DNA of 26,314 nt from a bacterium (GTDB taxonomy: Bacteria; Patescibacteriota; Patescibacteriia; UBA1558; S5-K13). The notes under the pieces were generated by a model. It made no database searches, was not told the origin of the DNA, and saw nothing but the letters and a program-made list of their open reading frames with translations. Each line of letters opens with the position of its first letter. Position 1 is the first letter of the stretch. A program made the translations under genes and the position numbers. Positions 1,306 to 14,367 of this stretch are shown here, piece after piece. The stretch lies in NCBI GenBank assembly GCA_029555085.1, contig JAKPTO010000006.1:1-26314 (forward strand), read 5' to 3'.

Positions 1306-2667
1306 ATGAAAATTTCATTTCATGGCGCATGTAAAGAAGTAACTGGTTCCTGTATTCTTGTAGAATCGGATAATTTTAAATTTCTTGTTGATTGTGGTTC
1401 TTTTCAGGGACAGGAATTTTCTTCTGATAGAAACGCTCAAGATTTTATATTCGATCCAAAACTTATTGATTTTGTTCTTTTAACTCATTCGCACCTAGAT
1501 CACTGCGGGAGATTACCTAAATTATTTCAGGAAGGTTTTCGAGGAATGATTTATTGTACAAGACCCACAAAAGATCTTGTATATTTGATTTTGATGGATG
1601 CTTTGAAGATAATGAAGGATAAGGAAAGTATCAATAAAAAACTTCAATACACATTAAAAGATGTAGAAGGCGTTATGAATTTAATTAAATGCTTAGATTA
1701 CAATGATGATTTTGATGTAAATAAATTTGTAAGAATAAGATTAAAAGATGCTGGACATATTTTGGGATCTGCTTTTTTTGAGGTTTATATAAAAGAAAAT
1801 AATAAAGAGAAAAAAATAGTATTTTCTGGTGACTTAGGAAATCCACCAACTCCAATTATAAGAGATACTGAATTTTCAGATGGCGCGGATATTGTGGTAG
1901 TAGAATCAACTTATGGTGGCTTATTGCACGAAGATAAGGAAATCGGTAAAAGTGCTATAAAAAATGTAATTCTTGAAACAATAAAAAATAAAAGTGTTTT
2001 GATAGTCCCTGTTTTTGCAGTTGAAAGATCTCAGGAAGTTTTATATGAACTTAATAATTTAGTAGAAAATAATTTAATTCCAGAGGTTCCAATGTTTTTT
2101 GATTCTCCCATGGGAATTAATGCAATAGATATTTATAGAAAATATCTTGATTTTTATGATGAAGATACTAAAAAATTAATAGATTCAGGTGATGACATTT
2201 TTATATTTCCAAAAATGAAATATACTCTTACACCTTTTGAGTCAAAAAAAATAAATAACACACAAGCTCCAAAAATTATTTTAGCTGGAAGTGGAATGTG
2301 TAATGGGGGAAGAGTTTTGCATCATTTGAAATTTAATTTAAGTAATCCAAAAACTAATGTTATGCTGTTATCTTTTCAAGCAAAAGATACTTTGGGTAGA
2401 AAACTTATGGAAGGAGAGAAAAATGTTTTAATTAATGAAGTGGATGTGGAGGTGAGAGCTAAAATTTCTGTTTTTGGATGTTTTTCTTCTCATGCAGATG
2501 AAAAAAAATTAGAAAATTGGCTTTCTAGTTTTACAAAAATTAAACCAAAAACTATTTTTATAAATCACGGGGAAGAGGATAGAAGCATTGCGTTGCAAAA
2601 TAATTTGAAAAAAACTACAAAAGCGAAAATACTAATCCCAGAATTTGGTGTTAAATATAACATTTAA
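1306..2667 (+). CDS. MBL-fold metallo-hydrolase, beta-CASP RNA-processing nuclease family
   Basis: Motifs GACKEVTGSC, LVDCG, THSHLDHCG (HxHxDH), AGHILGS, SGDLG, ESTYG, FAVERSQE, SGMCNGGR, FSSHAD and NHGE are all present. Confidence 0.93.
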   Translation: MKISFHGACKEVTGSCILVESDNFKFLVDCGSFQGQEFSSDRNAQDFIFDPKLIDFVLLTHSHLDHCGRLPKLFQEGFRGMIYCTRPTKDLVYLILMDALKIMKDKESINKKLQYTLKDVEGVMNLIKCLDYNDDFDVNKFVRIRLKDAGHILGSAFFEVYIKENNKEKKIVFSGDLGNPPTPIIRDTEFSDGADIVVVESTYGGLLHEDKEIGKSAIKNVILETIKNKSVLIVPVFAVERSQEVLYELNNLVENNLIPEVPMFFDSPMGINAIDIYRKYLDFYDEDTKKLIDSGDDIFIFPKMKYTLTPFESKKINNTQAPKIILAGSGMCNGGRVLHHLKFNLSNPKTNVMLLSFQAKDTLGRKLMEGEKNVLINEVDVEVRAKISVFGCFSSHADEKKLENWLSSFTKIKPKTIFINHGEEDRSIALQNNLKKTTKAKILIPEFGVKYNI

Positions 2668-2685
2668 TTTTTTTTAGTTATATAT

Positions 2686-2714
2686 AAATAAAAACTACTC
2701 TTAATAGAGTAGTT
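2686..2714 (-). terminator. Intrinsic terminator; U-tract on the - strand, possibly bidirectional
   Basis: Perfect 9-bp stem AACTACTCT (2693-2701) / AGAGTAGTT (2706-2714) with a 4-nt loop. On the - strand the stem runs out into TTTTTATTT. Confidence 0.75.
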
Positions 2715-2966
2715 AAAATTTATATTTTTCAGTAATCAAAGTAGTGTGTAGAGTTTAGAGTTATGATATGACATTGTTTTCCGCTGTTACCATAATTATC
2801 ATTGCAATGAAGCTTTGATAATGTAACTTTGGTCCACATTTATATAATTATTTGTCATTTATAACTCTATTTTAAGGCCAAATCCACGCTTTAAAGCGCA
2901 GAAATAGCCAAATAGTTCCCTCCACACTATTTTAATCACTGAAATTTTAATGTACTTTATGTGAAT
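2688..2966 (-). ncRNA. Candidate structured non-coding RNA (rod-like, 6S-RNA-like architecture; family unassigned)
   Basis: Nested pairings: 2727-2751/2920-2944 (21 of 25 Watson-Crick), 2756-2773/2853-2869, 2786-2790/2823-2827, 2795-2801/2816-2822, plus a side hairpin at 2876-2909. Most mismatches become G-U wobbles on the - strand. It is flanked by a - strand promoter and terminator. The ends are estimates. Confidence 0.7.
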
Positions 2967-2972
2967 ATTTTA

Positions 2973-3001
2973 ATGATAGCACATTTTGTAATATTTGTCA
3001 A
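2973..3001 (-). promoter_or_regulatory. Sigma70-type promoter for the candidate ncRNA
   Basis: The - strand reads TTGACA (3001-2996), a 17-nt spacer ending in TGc, then TATCAT (2978-2973): a perfect -35, optimal spacing and an extended -10. Confidence 0.75.
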
Positions 3002-3060
3002 TAGCAAATAATATTTTAAAAATATTGACTTATTTTTGTATTTATTTTATAAAATAAGTA

Positions 3061-3089
3061 TTGTATATATATTTTTTTTATGTTATATT
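3061..3089 (+). promoter_or_regulatory. Putative sigma70 promoter for lepB-hisS
   Basis: TTGTAT-17 nt-TATATT with TG at the extended position. A second candidate, TTGACT(3025)-17-TATAAA, lies upstream. The AT-rich background lowers specificity. Confidence 0.4.
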
Positions 3090-3121
3090 ATTGTATAATT
3101 GTGATTAAATTGTTATAAAAT

Positions 3122-3757
3122 ATGAAAAATAAAAATCAAAACTTAGAATATATTAATGAGGGCGAGGATGTGAACTTTGATAATCTACCCCAACCAAACA
3201 AATGGAGAGAACGCATTAGTTTTGTTTTAGAAATTGTAAAAACAGTTATAATTTCACTTGCAATTATATTGCCTATTAGATATTTTTTAATACAACCATT
3301 TATGGTTGACGGAGCTTCAATGGAGCCAAATTTTTACAACGCCGATTATTTGATAATTGATGAGATTTCTTATAGATTTAAAGTTCCAGAAAGAGGAGAT
3401 GTGGTTGTTTTTAAAAATCCAGAAAACACAAAAGAATATTTTATAAAAAGAGTTATAGGTCTTCCTGGTGAAACGATAAAAATTCAAGACGGAAAGGTTT
3501 TTTTAAAAAATATTAATTCAGGTGAATTTGAACAAATCCAAGAGGATTATCTGCCAGTAAATTTACAAACAATTGGTGTGGGTAGGGATATTATTATTCC
3601 AGATAATCATTATTTTGTTCTTGGAGATAATAGATCAAATAGTAGAGATAGTAGATATTTTGGTGCAATTTCAGAAGATTTAATAACAGGAAAAGTTCTT
3701 TTAAGGGGATATCCATTTAACAGAATAAAATTATTTACAGGAGATAAGCAATATTAA
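3122..3757 (+). CDS. lepB: Signal peptidase I
   Basis: One TM helix, catalytic Ser box (VDGASMEPNF), Lys box (YFIKRVIGLPG) and box E (GDNRSNSRDSR). Confidence 0.96.
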   Translation: MKNKNQNLEYINEGEDVNFDNLPQPNKWRERISFVLEIVKTVIISLAIILPIRYFLIQPFMVDGASMEPNFYNADYLIIDEISYRFKVPERGDVVVFKNPENTKEYFIKRVIGLPGETIKIQDGKVFLKNINSGEFEQIQEDYLPVNLQTIGVGRDIIIPDNHYFVLGDNRSNSRDSRYFGAISEDLITGKVLLRGYPFNRIKLFTGDKQY

Positions 3758-7419: not shown

Positions 7420-10400
7420 ATGAGATTTTTAAAAAACAAAAAAAATATAATTGCATTAATTACTTTTGCAGTAATTTTGTTTTTACCTATAATTTCATTT
7501 GCACAACAATTTACTAGGCATGAAATTGGTTATATTCCAGATATTGGTTTGGGTGGAAATATTTCTCCAGAAGAATTGATTGGAAATATAATAAGATTTT
7601 TTCTAGGATTGTTGGGATTTATTGCTCTTATTATAGTAATAATATCTGGCTTCAAGTGGATGACTAGTGGAGGAAATCAGGAAAAAATTTCAAAAGCAAA
7701 GCAAATGCTTGGAGCTGGAATTGTTGGGCTTTTGATTATTTTATTCTCATATATTATAACCACCGTTGTAATGCGCACATTTTTAACAATAACTGATTCA
7801 GGTGGAGGATCAGGTGGACCAGGTGGACCAGATGGACCACAGATAGTCTGTAATCAGACTACATTTGGTCAATGTATGGGTTGTAATTATATTTGTGGTT
7901 ATGAAAATGGTTCCTATCAAGCAGTGTATGATTCAAGTGTTTGTTTCGATGACTGTTCAACAAATCCAGACGACCTAAATTATTTGAAAGTTATATCATT
8001 GAGTCCATCTGGAAATAATGTAAATTTATGTTCAAACATACAAGTTAAATTTAATAAAAATATTAATTTAAATACGGTAAATAAAACAAACTTTCCAATT
8101 TATAAATGTAATAATTTTCCAAATTGTACTTATGCAGATGTCGAATCAGCGTTAGATGGTGAATATTCCCTGGGTTCTAATTCTAGTAAAATTGTAAAAT
8201 TTAACCCAAGTTCTAATTTTGAAGCAAATTCAACATATTGTATAAGCATAACAACCGATGTACAAAGCGTTGAAGGTTTTAGTTTGTTAAGACAAGAAGA
8301 TTCGTGTTTTAGTACTGGCGCGGGCGTAGATAATCAACCTCCAAAAGTTACTGAGGTTTTTCCAAATGTTGACAGTGGTACAGGGAATGATGTTTGTAGA
8401 AATACATATATAAAAGTTGGTTTTTCTAAAGATATGGACGAGGACAGCTTATTAAATTCTAATGCTATTAAATTATACAAAAAGAACGGTAATGTTTATT
8501 CACTTGATAACAGAGAATTTCATCACAGCGTTAATTCTAGCGGAGATCTTATTTTAAGATTAAAATCTGGGGTTTTTGATGAAGATAGTGATTATTCAGT
8601 TGTCTTGATTGGAGATAAAATAAAAGATTCTTGCGATATTACATTGGATGGAAATGAGAATGGCAGTGCAGAAGGTTCTCCGACGGATAATTTTCCACCG
8701 AATACCCCACCAACAAATCACGCTTCTTGGCATTTTATTACTGGTCAAACATATGAATGTAGACCTATTATAAATAGTAATCCCGGATTAGCTCATTATG
8801 ATGGCGGAGATGTTTTAACAATAACAGGCGATTATTTAAATGGGGCCTCGCTAGTTTTCAACAATAATATTAATATTTTTGAAAATAGTGAATCTTGTAT
8901 GGCAGATGCTAATGGTATTGTTAATGTAGCCTGTTCTCCTTCTGCTTGGGATGATAATACAATAAAAGTAAAAGTGCCTACTGAGGCAAGATCAGGAAAT
9001 ATAAAAGTGAATACATTATACGGAGCTACACTCAATACAAGCTTCACTCTTTTAAGTCCAAGAATCAATAATATTTCTCCAAGTATTGGAGGGAAGAATC
9101 AATTTATTACAATAGATGGGGATAATTTTGGAGCGACTCAGGGTACAAGCGAGATTTATTTTAGAAAAGGTAGTCAAAGCATACCAGCAGGATTTCCATG
9201 TGATTATTGGACGAATAATAGAATAATAATTAGCGTTCCGGAATCAATGGCAGATGAGTCATTTGGAGATTGGAATATTCAAATCAAAAAAGTGGGAGAT
9301 GAAGTGCATTGGAGTAATCCAGTAAAATTCACTTTTGATAATAATAGTTCTGCTGGTCCGGGGTTGTGTAGTGTTGGACCAAGGGATGTACATTATGAAG
9401 ATTTATTTACATTAACTGGGGTAAATTTAGGAACATCTTCTGATGAAAGATCAGTGGTTTTAGGTAATCAATATAATCACATTCCTGCAACAGAGGCAGG
9501 ATGGAATTCAGCAGCAACTCAAGTTACTGCAAAAACACCAAATTTACAGTCAGGAAGTGTTGGAGTAAGGGTCGTTGTTGGTACGGGAACAAGTGCAAAA
9601 TATAGCAATTTTCTCTCATTAAATGTATTAGATACAGGGGTTAATGCTTTGAATATATCTTACATAGAACCAGAATCTGGTCCAGTGGGTTCATATGTGA
9701 CTATATATGGAAGCGGATTTGGATCTAGCAGGGGAAATAGTGTTGTAAGATTTAAAACTAGTACAGATAATTGGATTGAGGGAGATTTTGTATTCCCATC
9801 AAGTTGTTCAACAAATTTTTGGAATAATAGCAGAATAATTGTAAAGGTTCCAGATGGGTTTTCTCTAGCCCATGGTTCATCACTTTCTTCTTCTGTTAAG
9901 GTAGTATTGAACGAAGGACAGGCAAATGAAAAAACAAGTAATGAAAAACCATTTGAGATAAATACTCAGCCACTTGCTCCATCTATTTGTGGAATATTAC
10001 CGGCTTCTGCGACAGCTGGTGAAACTGTTAATATTTTTGGGGAATATTTTGGTAATAATAAAGTAACAGCAACATTTCATTATATAAATGGTCAAGGTGA
10101 TAACGTTCTTTCCGGAATACCAACAGCTGATTCTGTGAGTGTTGTGGTTCCAGCAACTCAAACAGGACCAGTTGCTGTTAAGAATGAACATGGATATGGT
10201 AATACGGTTAATTTTGAATATATACAAGGATCTGAAACTCCAACCACTCCTCCGTTTGATTTTTACGGATGGAATTTTACAACATGTGAAAAATGCGGAA
10301 TACCAAGAGTTAGAAGACAGGCCTGTTCATCCGATGGTACATCTTCTCCTACCCCGTTTCCAGGATATCAAGATGTGCCAGTTGATATGAATATTTATGC

Positions 10401-13400
10401 TGAATTTGAATACGCAGATAAAACAGCTGTAAATTTAGATTTTAGTAACGGTGGTGTTAATTTTTATAAATGTTCTAATAATAATCAAAATAATTGTACT
10501 ATTCCAGTATCTTTTGTTCCGACTTATGATTCTGGTGGTGATGGATATACATCGTCAATTACGCTTGATCCAAGAAGCAATCTTGATGCAGGTACTTTAT
10601 ATAAAGTTTCCTTGTCCTCTGAGATTAAAGACTTTGATGGTTCAAGTTTAATTCCATTTGAGTGGTATTTTAAAACAAATTCATCTGGGGGGGCTTGTAA
10701 TGTTGATACGGTTCGTGTTTATCCAGATAGTCAAAGTGTTATTTACGATGCCGGCAAGACAGTTTCTTTTGGCACGCAAGTTTGGGCTTCAGATGGATGT
10801 TATCAATGTGCTAATAATTATCAATATGAGTGGTCTAAAGAAGACCCAAATAATTTAGTTGATTGGGTTAATCCAGGGACTGCCTCAACATCTAAAGTAA
10901 AAATTAATTCAAGTGGTAAGATTGGGAATGTGTTTGTAAATGCAGAAAATTTATCCTTTAATATATCTGATAATTCTCCTGCGCGTTTATCAATAACATT
11001 AGATTGTACAAAATTTAACACTATTGAAAATGAAATTACCAGACAAAATAAATGTTCTGCTAATAATTGTTGTTGGAATGCTCAATCAAATCAGTGCTTA
11101 AATCATGGTAATGCGGTTTGTGGAAAACCATTTGTATTAATTGAAAATTGTATTTCTAGTGGAAATGAAACAACAATGGGTTCTCCATCGCCTCAGTCAA
11201 CAAATACGTATTCTGTTCCTGTTGGAGCTAAAATTTTTGCAAAATTTGCAAAAAGCGGAGGAGAGGTTTCAATGAATGAAAGTACATATAGTGTCTCCGG
11301 AGCAATTAAAGTATATAAGTGTAATTCAGCTAATGGTTTTTTTGACAACAATGCTTGTATGCCATCTGGATTAAACATACAACATGATTCTTCTTTAAGT
11401 AATGGTCAGCAGGTTTTATATAATAAGAACAATGATTTTGATCCAGGTTTTTGGTATAAAGTTGTTTTAAATGAAAATAATAATAATGTTATAAAAGATG
11501 CAACCGGACAACCATTACAAACAAAAACTTGGTGGTTTAAAACAGGTTCAGGATTGTGCAATTCAACAAATGTAGCGGTGAGCGCTGTAAGTAGTACCTT
11601 AGCAGTTGGTGAGAATCAGAAATATACAGCAATTTCTTCCGATAATAATTGTACAGTTTGTAGTAACAATGATGAGTATTATTGGTCAATGACAACTCCA
11701 AATATTGCTCACTTTAATACTAGTACAACTCAGCCCAATATTTTTGTTACAGCAGATAATGTGGGACAAACAAAGATTAAAGCTCAAAATAAGGATTTTC
11801 CTATATTTGGATTAAAAAATTTAAAAGTTGTAAAGAATGTTAATTGTTCTAGTTTAACAAATCAAACAAGTTGTAATAATTCTGGTGCTTGTTGTTGGAG
11901 TAATGTCCAAAATAAATGTTTGCAGGGAGTTGATAATCCAGGGTGTCCAAACACCGGACCATTTAAGGTTCTCTCGGCTTTTCCTACGGAAGATGCTTGT
12001 CCAAATACGGTTATATCAGTAACATTTGATTCTGTTTTAGATTATTTAAGTTTGCAAGATAAAATATTTATAAAATCAGGAAGCGAAGATGTTGATTTTA
12101 GATATTCAGTTTATTTAAACGAATCTGGTCAATCTGTTTTAATAATAGAACCAACATCTGGATTAAAAGTTAATACTTCATATACTGTTTATTTAAATAA
12201 AGGGATAAGATCATCTGGGGGCGGATCTTTAATTTGTTCTGGGGATGCAACAGGTGATAGTTGTTATTCTTGGGGTTTTAAAACTGGAGCCAGTGTTTGT
12301 TCTTTGAGAAAGATAAATATAGTATATCCAGTTAAAAAGTTTTATGAATTTAATAATTTAGATGATCGCCCAACATTTACAGTACAAGGTTTAGATTCTA
12401 GAGGAAATGCAATAACTCAATTACCGGGTGTTTATGATTGGAAATGGAATTGGAGTAGTCAAGATACATCTCTTGTGGATTTTGTACCAGATTCAGATAT
12501 GTTTTTAAGTTCTGCGCAATTCATGGCTAAAAATAAAAACGGGAAAACCACTGTAACTATAACCGCAGAAGAATTAAATCCGCCAGTTGGTTTTAATGGC
12601 TCTCTTGATGATAAAGTTAATGTGGAAGTATTTTTATGTTTAGATCCTTGGAATTTGATGATAGATAATGATTATAATTTTTCTATGAAGTATTGCAAAG
12701 ACGGAGGACTTCCACACTTATCCGTACGAAAAACCTCAAACACTGGAGGTGGATTATTAAGAGAATACATACTTTCATTTAATGAATCAGGTGGGTCAAC
12801 CACTATTAATTATCCAACAAATAATACAATTAATAAGATTGCAAAACTTTCTAGTAATTCATTTGTTTTAAATATATTTTCACAATTTTTTGGTGGATTT
12901 GTAAATAAAATTTTAGGAACAACTGTTTTTGCCGAACAGGAAGATCCAACACAAGATGTTATAGGAATAAGAATATATAAAAATCCTAAACATTTAGATT
13001 CTTATACTTGGTATTATAATTCAGGATATGTTCCAAACCTAGGAAGACCAACAAAAACTAAGATTGATTCGTATAGTGCAGTACAAGAGGGGACAACTGT
13101 GTATGTAAATGCCGGAAATAAGGTTCAGAATAATAATATTGCGGGTTCTTCAAATCCTGCAAACCTTTATACAACAATATATTTAATGTCGCATAATCCA
13201 AACGCAACTAGCATAACAAGAGGGATCATAGCACAATTAAAAAAGAATTGGACATTTAATATAAATCTTACAGAGCCACAAGATAAAATAGATTTAACCC
13301 AGGATGTATTGAGATGGGAACACATTAGAAGTTTTGAAAATATATTGGATAATTACGCTTATTATAATAAATATTGCGCTTATCAAACTAATCCGATTGC

Positions 13401-14367
13401 AGGCAATTGTCCAAGCACAGTAGATTTATCATATAAATGGATTGATGATGATAGTGACGGAGTTATTGAATCTACTGATGGGAATGGGATAATTAATAAT
13501 GGCGAATGCTATAGTATATCAAAAGAAATTAGGTGTTCTGATGATGAATATTGTAAAAATAATGCATTAAAATTTGATAAATGTTTAATGACATATCCAT
13601 TGTTAGAGAGTGGGACATATAAGAAGGGCATGTCTGTTTCTGTTTGGCCATCATGGAGCGAGACTCTGTCATCTGAGGTTGGTGGAATGCTTCCAATTGA
13701 TCCAATAAACAAAATGGCTGGGGAGTGTTCTAATGGTCCTAATGATCCAAGAGATCCAGTAACTTGTTGGGATGCAGTAAATAGTAATTTTATGTGTCCA
13801 GCTGGTTCTCATGTATACATTTACAAATCAAGAGCCGGTGGTTTTGATTTATATACAATGTTTAATAATAATTCTAATACTTCTGCTATTTGGGATGGAG
13901 ATAGTAGTCCGTTTATGCCACAAAATCGTTTTATGTTTGATAATTCAGCAATATGTAATGGTTCTACAAATGCAATGTGTGGAAACAATAGTGATTGTCC
14001 TGGGGATTGTCAGAAATGTAATCTAATAACACACGAGTGCGAGTCCACATGTAGCGCTAATAAACCACATTGTTTTGATCATAGTATCCCAGTTGATTGT
14101 TTAGATGATGTTCATTGTACTGAACCATGTCATAGATGCGATAGCGTAACACACGAATGTGTTAATAATTGTTCTGATGGAAAAATTTGTAGTAATACAA
14201 ATCAATGTGTTCAATGCGTGAGTGATAGGGATTGCACTACTCCATGTTCACGATGCGTAAATAATAATTGTAGACCTTTATGCGCTCCTGATAATTGTAT
14301 AAATAATCACTGTTCTGATTTTTCTTCTGGTGGATTAGAGATTAATAACCCCGATGTAAAACCATAA
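7420..14367 (+). CDS. Giant 2315-aa Cys-rich surface protein: signal peptide, VirB2-like pilin, Big_5-type Ig, ~5 IPT/TIG, duplicated Ig/Cys modules, GspG/type IV pilin-like domain, Cys-rich tail
   Basis: ISFA|Q signal peptide; pilin motif GFKWMTSGGNQEKISKAK; IPT units (PRINNISPSIGGKNQFITIDGDNFG, ISYIEPESGPVGSYVTIYGSGFG); WxFKT Ig ends; DVLR..I...LDNY..YP..LPIDP; C-terminal CxxxxDC repeats. Confidence 0.85.
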   Translation: MRFLKNKKNIIALITFAVILFLPIISFAQQFTRHEIGYIPDIGLGGNISPEELIGNIIRFFLGLLGFIALIIVIISGFKWMTSGGNQEKISKAKQMLGAGIVGLLIILFSYIITTVVMRTFLTITDSGGGSGGPGGPDGPQIVCNQTTFGQCMGCNYICGYENGSYQAVYDSSVCFDDCSTNPDDLNYLKVISLSPSGNNVNLCSNIQVKFNKNINLNTVNKTNFPIYKCNNFPNCTYADVESALDGEYSLGSNSSKIVKFNPSSNFEANSTYCISITTDVQSVEGFSLLRQEDSCFSTGAGVDNQPPKVTEVFPNVDSGTGNDVCRNTYIKVGFSKDMDEDSLLNSNAIKLYKKNGNVYSLDNREFHHSVNSSGDLILRLKSGVFDEDSDYSVVLIGDKIKDSCDITLDGNENGSAEGSPTDNFPPNTPPTNHASWHFITGQTYECRPIINSNPGLAHYDGGDVLTITGDYLNGASLVFNNNINIFENSESCMADANGIVNVACSPSAWDDNTIKVKVPTEARSGNIKVNTLYGATLNTSFTLLSPRINNISPSIGGKNQFITIDGDNFGATQGTSEIYFRKGSQSIPAGFPCDYWTNNRIIISVPESMADESFGDWNIQIKKVGDEVHWSNPVKFTFDNNSSAGPGLCSVGPRDVHYEDLFTLTGVNLGTSSDERSVVLGNQYNHIPATEAGWNSAATQVTAKTPNLQSGSVGVRVVVGTGTSAKYSNFLSLNVLDTGVNALNISYIEPESGPVGSYVTIYGSGFGSSRGNSVVRFKTSTDNWIEGDFVFPSSCSTNFWNNSRIIVKVPDGFSLAHGSSLSSSVKVVLNEGQANEKTSNEKPFEINTQPLAPSICGILPASATAGETVNIFGEYFGNNKVTATFHYINGQGDNVLSGIPTADSVSVVVPATQTGPVAVKNEHGYGNTVNFEYIQGSETPTTPPFDFYGWNFTTCEKCGIPRVRRQACSSDGTSSPTPFPGYQDVPVDMNIYAEFEYADKTAVNLDFSNGGVNFYKCSNNNQNNCTIPVSFVPTYDSGGDGYTSSITLDPRSNLDAGTLYKVSLSSEIKDFDGSSLIPFEWYFKTNSSGGACNVDTVRVYPDSQSVIYDAGKTVSFGTQVWASDGCYQCANNYQYEWSKEDPNNLVDWVNPGTASTSKVKINSSGKIGNVFVNAENLSFNISDNSPARLSITLDCTKFNTIENEITRQNKCSANNCCWNAQSNQCLNHGNAVCGKPFVLIENCISSGNETTMGSPSPQSTNTYSVPVGAKIFAKFAKSGGEVSMNESTYSVSGAIKVYKCNSANGFFDNNACMPSGLNIQHDSSLSNGQQVLYNKNNDFDPGFWYKVVLNENNNNVIKDATGQPLQTKTWWFKTGSGLCNSTNVAVSAVSSTLAVGENQKYTAISSDNNCTVCSNNDEYYWSMTTPNIAHFNTSTTQPNIFVTADNVGQTKIKAQNKDFPIFGLKNLKVVKNVNCSSLTNQTSCNNSGACCWSNVQNKCLQGVDNPGCPNTGPFKVLSAFPTEDACPNTVISVTFDSVLDYLSLQDKIFIKSGSEDVDFRYSVYLNESGQSVLIIEPTSGLKVNTSYTVYLNKGIRSSGGGSLICSGDATGDSCYSWGFKTGASVCSLRKINIVYPVKKFYEFNNLDDRPTFTVQGLDSRGNAITQLPGVYDWKWNWSSQDTSLVDFVPDSDMFLSSAQFMAKNKNGKTTVTITAEELNPPVGFNGSLDDKVNVEVFLCLDPWNLMIDNDYNFSMKYCKDGGLPHLSVRKTSNTGGGLLREYILSFNESGGSTTINYPTNNTINKIAKLSSNSFVLNIFSQFFGGFVNKILGTTVFAEQEDPTQDVIGIRIYKNPKHLDSYTWYYNSGYVPNLGRPTKTKIDSYSAVQEGTTVYVNAGNKVQNNNIAGSSNPANLYTTIYLMSHNPNATSITRGIIAQLKKNWTFNINLTEPQDKIDLTQDVLRWEHIRSFENILDNYAYYNKYCAYQTNPIAGNCPSTVDLSYKWIDDDSDGVIESTDGNGIINNGECYSISKEIRCSDDEYCKNNALKFDKCLMTYPLLESGTYKKGMSVSVWPSWSETLSSEVGGMLPIDPINKMAGECSNGPNDPRDPVTCWDAVNSNFMCPAGSHVYIYKSRAGGFDLYTMFNNNSNTSAIWDGDSSPFMPQNRFMFDNSAICNGSTNAMCGNNSDCPGDCQKCNLITHECESTCSANKPHCFDHSIPVDCLDDVHCTEPCHRCDSVTHECVNNCSDGKICSNTNQCVQCVSDRDCTTPCSRCVNNNCRPLCAPDNCINNHCSDFSSGGLEINNPDVKP

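Follow-up and report, generated by a model that had tools for sequence, protein, structure and literature searches.

What kind of RNA, if any, is encoded on the minus strand between a beta-CASP/RMMBL nuclease gene (1306-2667, plus strand) and lepB (3122-3757, plus strand) in contig JAKPTO010000006.1 of the Patescibacteria assembly GCA_029555085.1? A first-pass annotation, made from the letters alone, had placed a stand-alone structured RNA gene in this 454-bp gap, and had offered two identities for it: a divergent 6S RNA into which an arm has been inserted, or an unnamed non-coding RNA class of the Candidate Phyla Radiation (CPR). The window analysed here is the whole contig of 26,314 nt (contig C51 of a 1.02-Mb genome, G000, which is 99.4% complete). 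The gap houses a minus-strand unit, below called the orphan RNA gene, and comparative data point to the second identity.

The promoter of this unit consists of TTGACA (3001-2996), a 17-nt spacer and TATCAT (2978-2973) preceded by TG, with 11 of 12 positions matching the consensus. TTGACA-17-TGCTATCAT ranked first among the 16 promoter-like sites observed in 2500-3300. The terminator, a 9-bp stem (2714-2693) followed by TTTTTATTT, is the sole terminator-like site in the same interval, where 0.2 are expected. Both signals had been named in the first-pass annotation and were recovered by the promoter and terminator scans. Transcription would start near A2966, 7 nt past the -10 box, and would yield a transcript of about 280 nt. 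Downstream of the RNA there is the terminator and then the 3' end of the convergent gene; no minus-strand gene follows. The window has 17 long, non-nested open reading frames (ORFs), every one of them plus-strand; a 93-aa minus-strand ORF sits nested within a plus-strand ORF. The orphan RNA gene is the sole minus-strand unit of the window, as had been claimed. The longest frame within the RNA encodes 36 aa (start at 2839) and is interrupted by a stop at codon 2 in the relative G001. We judge the gene to be non-coding and to be read from the minus strand. One full-length copy is present in the 1.02-Mb genome, the other 32 blastn matches being 14-38 nt long with E>=0.006.

Homologues were found in eight GTDB genomes, belonging to four genera of one Komeilibacteria family (f1), and in the metagenome contig L066, nine in all. 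Blastn matched 12 of the 61 relative genomes and covered the core in six of them; the remaining matches, 26-43 nt long and confined to the promoter or terminator ends, were not used. A covariance model, R1, recovered the RNA from 8 of the 13 other genomes of the family, with genera g1 (3/3), g3 (3/3), g4 (1/1) and g5 (1/1) all positive. A scan of metagenomes with an invariant 16-mer matched at least 118 stretches, and among the 80 that were examined with R1 only L102, scoring as G003, and L066 were confirmed. The corresponding scans of genome contigs (80 of 119 stretches examined) and viral contigs (19 of 19) added only L263 and L265, whose scores equal those of G009 and G005. Two weaker candidates were discarded: L098, where a 67-nt piece scoring 27.7 bits was taken for a hairpin arisen by chance, and L242 (18.9 bits, E 0.0089). 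The record that holds L265 is titled 'uncultured Gammaproteobacteria bacterium'; its title or binning is probably wrong.

The predicted helices are supported by covariation. With seven sequences as input, RNAalifold predicted 50 pairs, of which 12 were compensatory. We supplemented these pairs with helices visible in the alignment and then realigned; in the resulting set of ten sequences 87.7% of 682 cells are paired, versus 32-45% when the partners are slid by 1-3 columns. Both-sided changes occur in 29 of 71 pairs, and the covariation score was reached by none of 500 shuffles. The alignment is strand-biased as well: 72 cells are G-U versus 32 A-C, and four pairs are mostly G-U while none is mostly A-C. 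Selection on an RNA structure read from the minus strand, which had been proposed from a single sequence, is upheld by these data.

The promoter is conserved together with the fold. TTGACA at 17-nt spacing and TGnTAnnnT occur on the RNA strand in all eight homologues with at least 80 nt upstream, and TGnTAnnnT is kept in all nine sequences with upstream DNA, own genome included. L066 ends at a contig edge and retains the extended -10. The terminator is not conserved, the canonical one being found only in the own genome. None of the 4227 Rfam families reached its gathering score in the window. By sequence comparison, this conserved, covarying, single-copy RNA with its own conserved promoter is a new RNA family, and the proposal of an unnamed CPR class is the one that stands.

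The leaders differ between genera. In g3 and g5 (L029, L030, L032, L066) the leader is about 30 nt longer, and between the promoter and the closing helix P1 it has another TTGACA box as well as a GC-rich hairpin. The leaders of g1 and g4 have only a GUNCNUUGA-like remnant.

The fold is stronger on the minus strand. The minus strand of 2686-2970 folds at -83.4 kcal/mol (z -9.13, none of 200 shuffles as good) versus -73.2 kcal/mol (z -7.24) for the plus strand, and for the 223-nt core (2946-2724) the values are -72.8 and -61.1 kcal/mol, a minus-strand advantage of 11.7. An energy computed for the mirrored structure on the plus strand was disregarded, since it counted non-canonical pairs. An inverted-repeat search returned the closing-stem arms 2727-2751 / 2920-2944 (25 nt, 84% Watson-Crick) and the side hairpin 2876-2909. 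The second stem, a one-sided A/U bulge and the apical stem (2786-2827) are all contained in the minimum-energy fold. Thus every helix of the first-pass annotation was found again, as was its asymmetric bubble, here the one-sided bulge of 14 nt. Its strand-specific G-U pairs are likewise present in the minus-strand fold of the core, but their number is 6 among 72 pairs and not five.

P1 has 26 modelled pairs with 93% of cells paired, and six of the pairs show compensatory change. Its 5'-strand sequence AAAAUAGUGYGGAGGG is almost invariant. In all nine full-length sequences this helix keeps an A-C mismatch, next to it a U-G (in G000 a U-A), and another two G-U pairs. The side hairpin P2 has 13 pairs, six of them compensatory, and consists of a GGCU/AGCC base that covaries, a UCU/GGA step that is invariant, a conserved GGAUUU and a tip of variable length, extended by 30 nt in G007. 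A CUAU/AUAG pairing is proposed to close this hairpin. The long arm starts with P3' (5-9 bp, covarying) and P3 (AUGAC/GUCAU, AUGGC/GCCAU or AUGGC/GUCAU). Next comes the A/U bulge of variable sequence, which measures 14 nt in the own genome and 11-14 nt among the homologues and faces 0-2 nt on the other strand. Beyond the bulge lies UGU/ACA, which is invariant. Two purine-rich 3x3 loops follow, separated by a 2-bp step that covaries (CC/GG, AC/GU or GC/GC), and past the second loop two helices, also covarying, reach the apical loop. In the distal arm, helices 5-8 have 93.6-100% of cells paired, and 9 of their 19 pairs are compensatory; the internal-loop positions are invariant or purine-restricted. 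The centre of the RNA is modelled as a closed three-way junction of P1, the 5'-side P2 and the long arm, because the arm returns to P1 over a strand of only 2-5 nt. The features are listed in the table.

Table. Features of the orphan RNA gene and its flank (window coordinates unless a locus is named)
Feature	Positions	Strand	Basis
Whole transcription unit, promoter to terminator	2686..3001	-	fold, promoter and terminator scans
-35 hexamer TTGACA	2996..3001	-	promoter scan
Extended -10 TGCTATCAT	2973..2981	-	promoter scan
Predicted 5' leader	2945..2966	-	sequence; start near A2966 predicted from -10 position
P1 closing helix, 5' strand, ...AAAAUAGUGYGGAGGG conserved	2918..2944	-	alignment, covariation, inverted repeat
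Junction strand J1/2 AACUAUUU (AACUAU...)	2910..2917	-	alignment; nearly invariant in g1, g3, g4
P2 side hairpin	2876..2909	-	covariation, inverted repeat, fold
P3'/P3, base of long arm, 5' strand	2853..2869	-	fold, covariation
One-sided A/U-rich bulge	2839..2852	-	fold, alignment
Distal arm P4-P7, two 3x3 purine-rich internal loops and apical loop	2775..2838	-	covariation
P3'/P3, 3' strand	2756..2773	-	fold, covariation
P1 closing helix, 3' strand	2727..2753	-	covariation, inverted repeat
Intrinsic terminator: 9-bp stem, 4-nt loop, U tract	2686..2714	-	terminator scan
3' module of homologues	L024:1433-1500, L030:1404-1500	-	also in L031, L066

We give about an even chance to the reading that a stable structured non-coding RNA of a new Komeilibacteria family is encoded here by a gene of its own and acts in trans as the scaffold or decoy of a ribonucleoprotein (RNP). 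The gene is considered independent because its flanking genes differ between genera. Genes lepB and hisS flank it only within genus g1; the other flanks are DnaB, a Big_13 protein, an SSF transporter, YibE_F with NYN, or GtrA with a 185-aa ORF. Covarying homologues, which according to the first-pass annotation were to be sought upstream of lepB in related genomes, were found; the lepB position is kept only in that one genus. Transcription would proceed from a sigma-70 promoter of the full-consensus type that has an extended -10, giving an RNA predicted at about 280 nt with a conserved core of 220-275 nt, and the product would fold into the closed three-way junction with P1, the P2 side hairpin and the long bulged arm. 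We infer that this RNA is stable, builds up in the cell and works in trans. It would then be the RNA part of an RNP, either a protein-binding scaffold or a decoy, and the conserved helix irregularities and internal loops are proposed as the protein recognition sites. This function is favoured because a conserved long helix with fixed non-Watson-Crick pairs and two purine-rich loops suit protein recognition. The scaffold or decoy mechanism, taken alone, is the weaker part of the proposal.

Several observations weigh against this reading. No homologue was found in genus g2 of the same family (0/5), even in a laxer search with 150 candidates per genome, where the best E was 3. R1 with strict filters found none in 72 genomes from six other families of the order, and a second model, R2, with strict filters and 15 candidates scored per genome, none in another 149 genomes from the class. 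With so narrow a family, a core role in the cell is unlikely. The ten aligned sequences correspond to about four lineages, and the 29 covarying pairs overstate the number of independent events. In the RNA runs (two, plus one guessed to be such) 11-18% of sampled words of 2400-3400 were present, and the contigs of these runs cover only lepB (X18: 3151-3379) and the beta-CASP gene (X20: 2400-2595); those of X19 were placed nowhere in 2400-3400, and the runs support neither expression of the RNA nor its absence. The DNA itself occurs in 17 public runs. The 185-aa ORF is the one recurrent neighbour (g3, g5) and is absent from the own genome; for that reason it was rejected as a partner protein. 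Finally, in some homologues the 3' flank of the RNA runs into the ribosome-binding site of a small ORF, and co-transcription is possible there.

A different explanation makes the RNA the opening portion of a longer transcript, as a 5' leader or an operon-linked RNA with variable small genes behind it; in a related version the RNA gene is an integration hot spot, as tRNA and tmRNA genes are. In G003, G005 and G011 a conserved 3' module and the ribosome-binding sites of small ORFs follow the RNA within 70-100 nt, and these ORFs differ (105 aa in one case, 84 and 82 aa and Cys-rich in the others). Unrelated Cys-rich ORFs are also found downstream on the same strand in G006 and G009, tRNA genes are situated 0.3-0.7 kb away in G001 and G003, and the restriction of the canonical terminator to the own genome points in the same direction. 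On the other hand, in the own genome the terminator ends the RNA opposite the 3' end of a convergent gene. The downstream genes are mutually unrelated, which does not fit a cis-regulator of one gene family: the RNA was not found upstream of one constant same-strand gene, and no riboswitch or leader family was matched. We regard a leader or hot spot as unlikely. A mobile or selfish element, such as a foldback resembling a miniature inverted-repeat transposable element (MITE), or a defence or toxin-antitoxin RNA, would account for the long terminal inverted repeat and the variable flanks, and an IS200-type transposase gene adjoins the RNA in G009. However, where the first-pass annotation had taken many dispersed copies as the sign of a MITE, a single copy is present. 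None of the 19 viral contigs bearing the 16-mer gave a true match, no phage or plasmid was matched, and no reverse transcriptase, toxin or Cas-like gene is adjacent within about 1.5 kb in eight loci. What selection acts on is an RNA fold, to judge from the compensatory changes and the G-U bias, and the promoter is conserved across homologues. An element of this kind is, in our view, very improbable. That the palindrome acts as DNA, as a protein-binding or recombination site, is suggested by the good fold of the plus strand. This is hardly credible given the asymmetry of G-U and A-C cells, the better fold of the minus-strand core and the conserved promoter that is aimed into the element.

The region 3' of the RNA has features of its own. 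A module of about 50 nt with the pattern GACCCGYUU(R)AGGGGAUU is found just 3' of the RNA in G003, G005, G011 and L066. In the first three it is followed by a GUCGCU...AGCGAC hairpin (AGCGAU in G011). The module stops at the ribosome-binding site of the unrelated small ORFs, is single-copy in G005 and G011, and is absent from the own genome, which has a plain terminator instead. It may be an ancestral 3' domain of the RNA. The DNA further 3' is highly variable (L028, L029, L030, L031) and often contains small Cys-rich ORFs; tRNA genes were observed near the RNA in two genomes (L024:836-908, L027:1167-1239). By analogy, this variable DNA resembles an insertion hot spot as seen at tRNA and tmRNA genes.

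The 6S identity was the other proposal of the first-pass annotation. Spelled out here, it would have the RNA bind the sigma-70 RNA polymerase holoenzyme in imitation of an open promoter; either the A/U bulge or the junction would take the place of the bubble, and P2 would correspond to the inserted arm. There are likenesses. Both are stand-alone single-copy genes with a strong sigma-70 promoter, a long helix closing the ends, an elongated, rod-like axis and a similar order of size. The bulge is on the 5' strand, where 6S RNA templates the product RNA (pRNA). The niche also looks empty, as Rfam 6S (RF00013) was detected neither in the own genome nor in 86 genomes of the order. Yet RF00013 gave nothing at gathering score in the window, nothing at E<=10 in 2600-3150 or 2720-2950 (stretches of 551 and 231 nt, in which no other relevant family appeared at that threshold), and nothing at E<=0.1 in the nine homologue loci. 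The model does work in the phylum: at E<=0.001 it found 6S RNA of 143-197 nt in 19 of 121 sampled Patescibacteria, six of them above the cut-off, and in none of the six genomes of the own class in that sample. The orphan RNA core is 220-275 nt long, in contrast to these 19 matches.

Topology separates the two further. We compared the minimum-energy folds of nine family members with those of six 6S loci from the phylum (153-156 nt), all of them predictions. Each of the six controls is built of closing stem, apical stem and a small branch hairpin that follows the apical stem on the 3' side; in two of them, G251 and G278, 18 nt stand open on the 5' strand. In the orphan RNA family the hairpin lies 5' of the long arm, the 3' joiner has 2-5 nt, and the largest loop is 14:1 or 12:2. 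The centre is a predicted closed three-way junction, not a two-stranded bubble, and no two-sided central bubble was observed in the folds of the nine members. Open-promoter mimicry by 6S RNA requires both strands of the bubble. The orphan RNA lacks this feature because its only large loop is one-sided, and we do not think, from the modelled fold, that it mimics an open promoter. The RNA is also confined to four genera, being missing from genus g2 and from all other families searched, which does not suit a 6S RNA. The structural comparison lowers the probability of a 6S-like function, and a 6S RNA that has diverged and gained an arm now appears unlikely. More generally, a rod with a promoter and a terminator is insufficient to call a 6S RNA; the side of the branch hairpin and the presence of a two-sided bubble discriminate.

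Other known RNAs were considered in the same manner. Among the nine homologue loci, Rfam at E<=0.1 returned two tRNAs only. A PreQ1 match in the leader of G005 (14.6 bits, E 2.9) was judged to be due to chance. The genome has its tmRNA (RF00023; G000:C5:58738-59128, 91.1 bits) and RNase P RNA (RF00010; G000:C48:34631-35019, 191.9 bits) elsewhere. A retron would have a reverse transcriptase gene immediately downstream, and none was seen in the eight loci; no reverse transcriptase domain was found by Pfam among their 19 flanking ORFs, a genome-wide search for this domain not having been made. The orphan RNA resembles Y RNA and YrlA-Rsr systems in that its 5' and 3' ends pair into a conserved terminal helix to which a protein could bind, with a structured module beyond it. 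It differs from them in that the genome has no Ro gene (Ro60/TROVE, PF05731, was not found) and Rfam Y RNA families gave no match; no T-loop-like motif was seen by eye.

Signal recognition particle RNA (SRP RNA; 4.5S RNA) is a further housekeeping-type rod RNA, and it, too, has no Rfam match in the own genome. The orphan RNA matches neither of its models, RF00169 and RF01854, which found nothing in the locus or in the whole genome; RF00169 was also negative in all 86 genomes of the order. SRP RNA was excluded because Ffh and FtsY were not found in the genome or the order. The M domain of SRP54 (PF02978) is absent from the own genome, where PF00448 gave only a 22.9-bit partial P-loop match in a 212-aa ORF. 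No real PF00448 match was obtained in the 86 genomes of the order. No ORF of the own genome contains both GxGK[TS]T and D[TS]AG, the patterns that we assumed to mark SRP GTPases. PF02978 was found in none of 61 genomes sampled across Patescibacteria and in all 14 control genomes. From these searches the SRP pathway seems to be missing altogether in the own genome, its order and the sample of the phylum.

We found no statement on the presence or absence of SRP proteins in Patescibacteria in the literature that was searched, and no paper on CPR non-coding RNAs in the part of it accessible to us that concerned CPR together with SRP RNA or 6S RNA. The SRP genes named in the accessible part of PMC10768705 carry the prefix APY09_ and are compared with the host-alone control XH001n; we take them to be genes of the host. 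In the text available for bioRxiv 10.1101/2024.03.08.584096, the 'Sec-SRP' of a patescibacterium comprises secDEFGYA and yidC, and ffh and ftsY are not named there. A term search of the available portion of PMC9297842 returned neither SRP nor 6S.

The preferred reading, an independent gene for a stable trans-acting RNA, can be carried further at a cost in probability. The RNA might be the core of a lineage-specific RNP, for instance a regulator directed at the polymerase or the ribosome, in which the closed junction stands in for the bubble of 6S RNA. In that case several Patescibacteria lineages without detectable canonical 6S would each have a rod RNA with a closed junction, unrelated to one another, and this would be one of them. 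We assign only a small chance to this extension. Conserved non-Watson-Crick features, a strong conserved promoter and the covarying pairs make this a well-supported new RNA family. The ultra-small CPR/Patescibacteria constitute a large share of bacterial diversity and their non-coding RNAs are almost uncharted. The lineage with the RNA has no detectable 6S RNA or SRP. Should a partner protein or target be found, it would reveal part of the regulation or RNP biology peculiar to these minimal cells, which depend on hosts. Confinement to four genera limits the present weight of the family.

Some further observations concern other parts of the genome. The region upstream of ruvB (G000:C5:120531-121350; L169:2494-3313) is occupied by two small ORFs that are bounded by terminators and have strong ribosome-binding sites; the promoter of the first ORF matches the consensus in 12 of 12 positions. 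R2 gave no match in 29 ruvB loci across the phylum (best 13.8 bits, E 0.18). A 2315-aa ORF is located at 7420-14367 of the window (plus strand), within the same string of plus-strand genes that surrounds the orphan RNA. Promoters of the form TTGACA-(16-18)-TGnTAnnnT occur 34 times in the 1.02-Mb genome, versus about five expected from base composition by a rough estimate. Several full-consensus promoters near contig ends have near-identical spacers and probably belong to stable-RNA operons.

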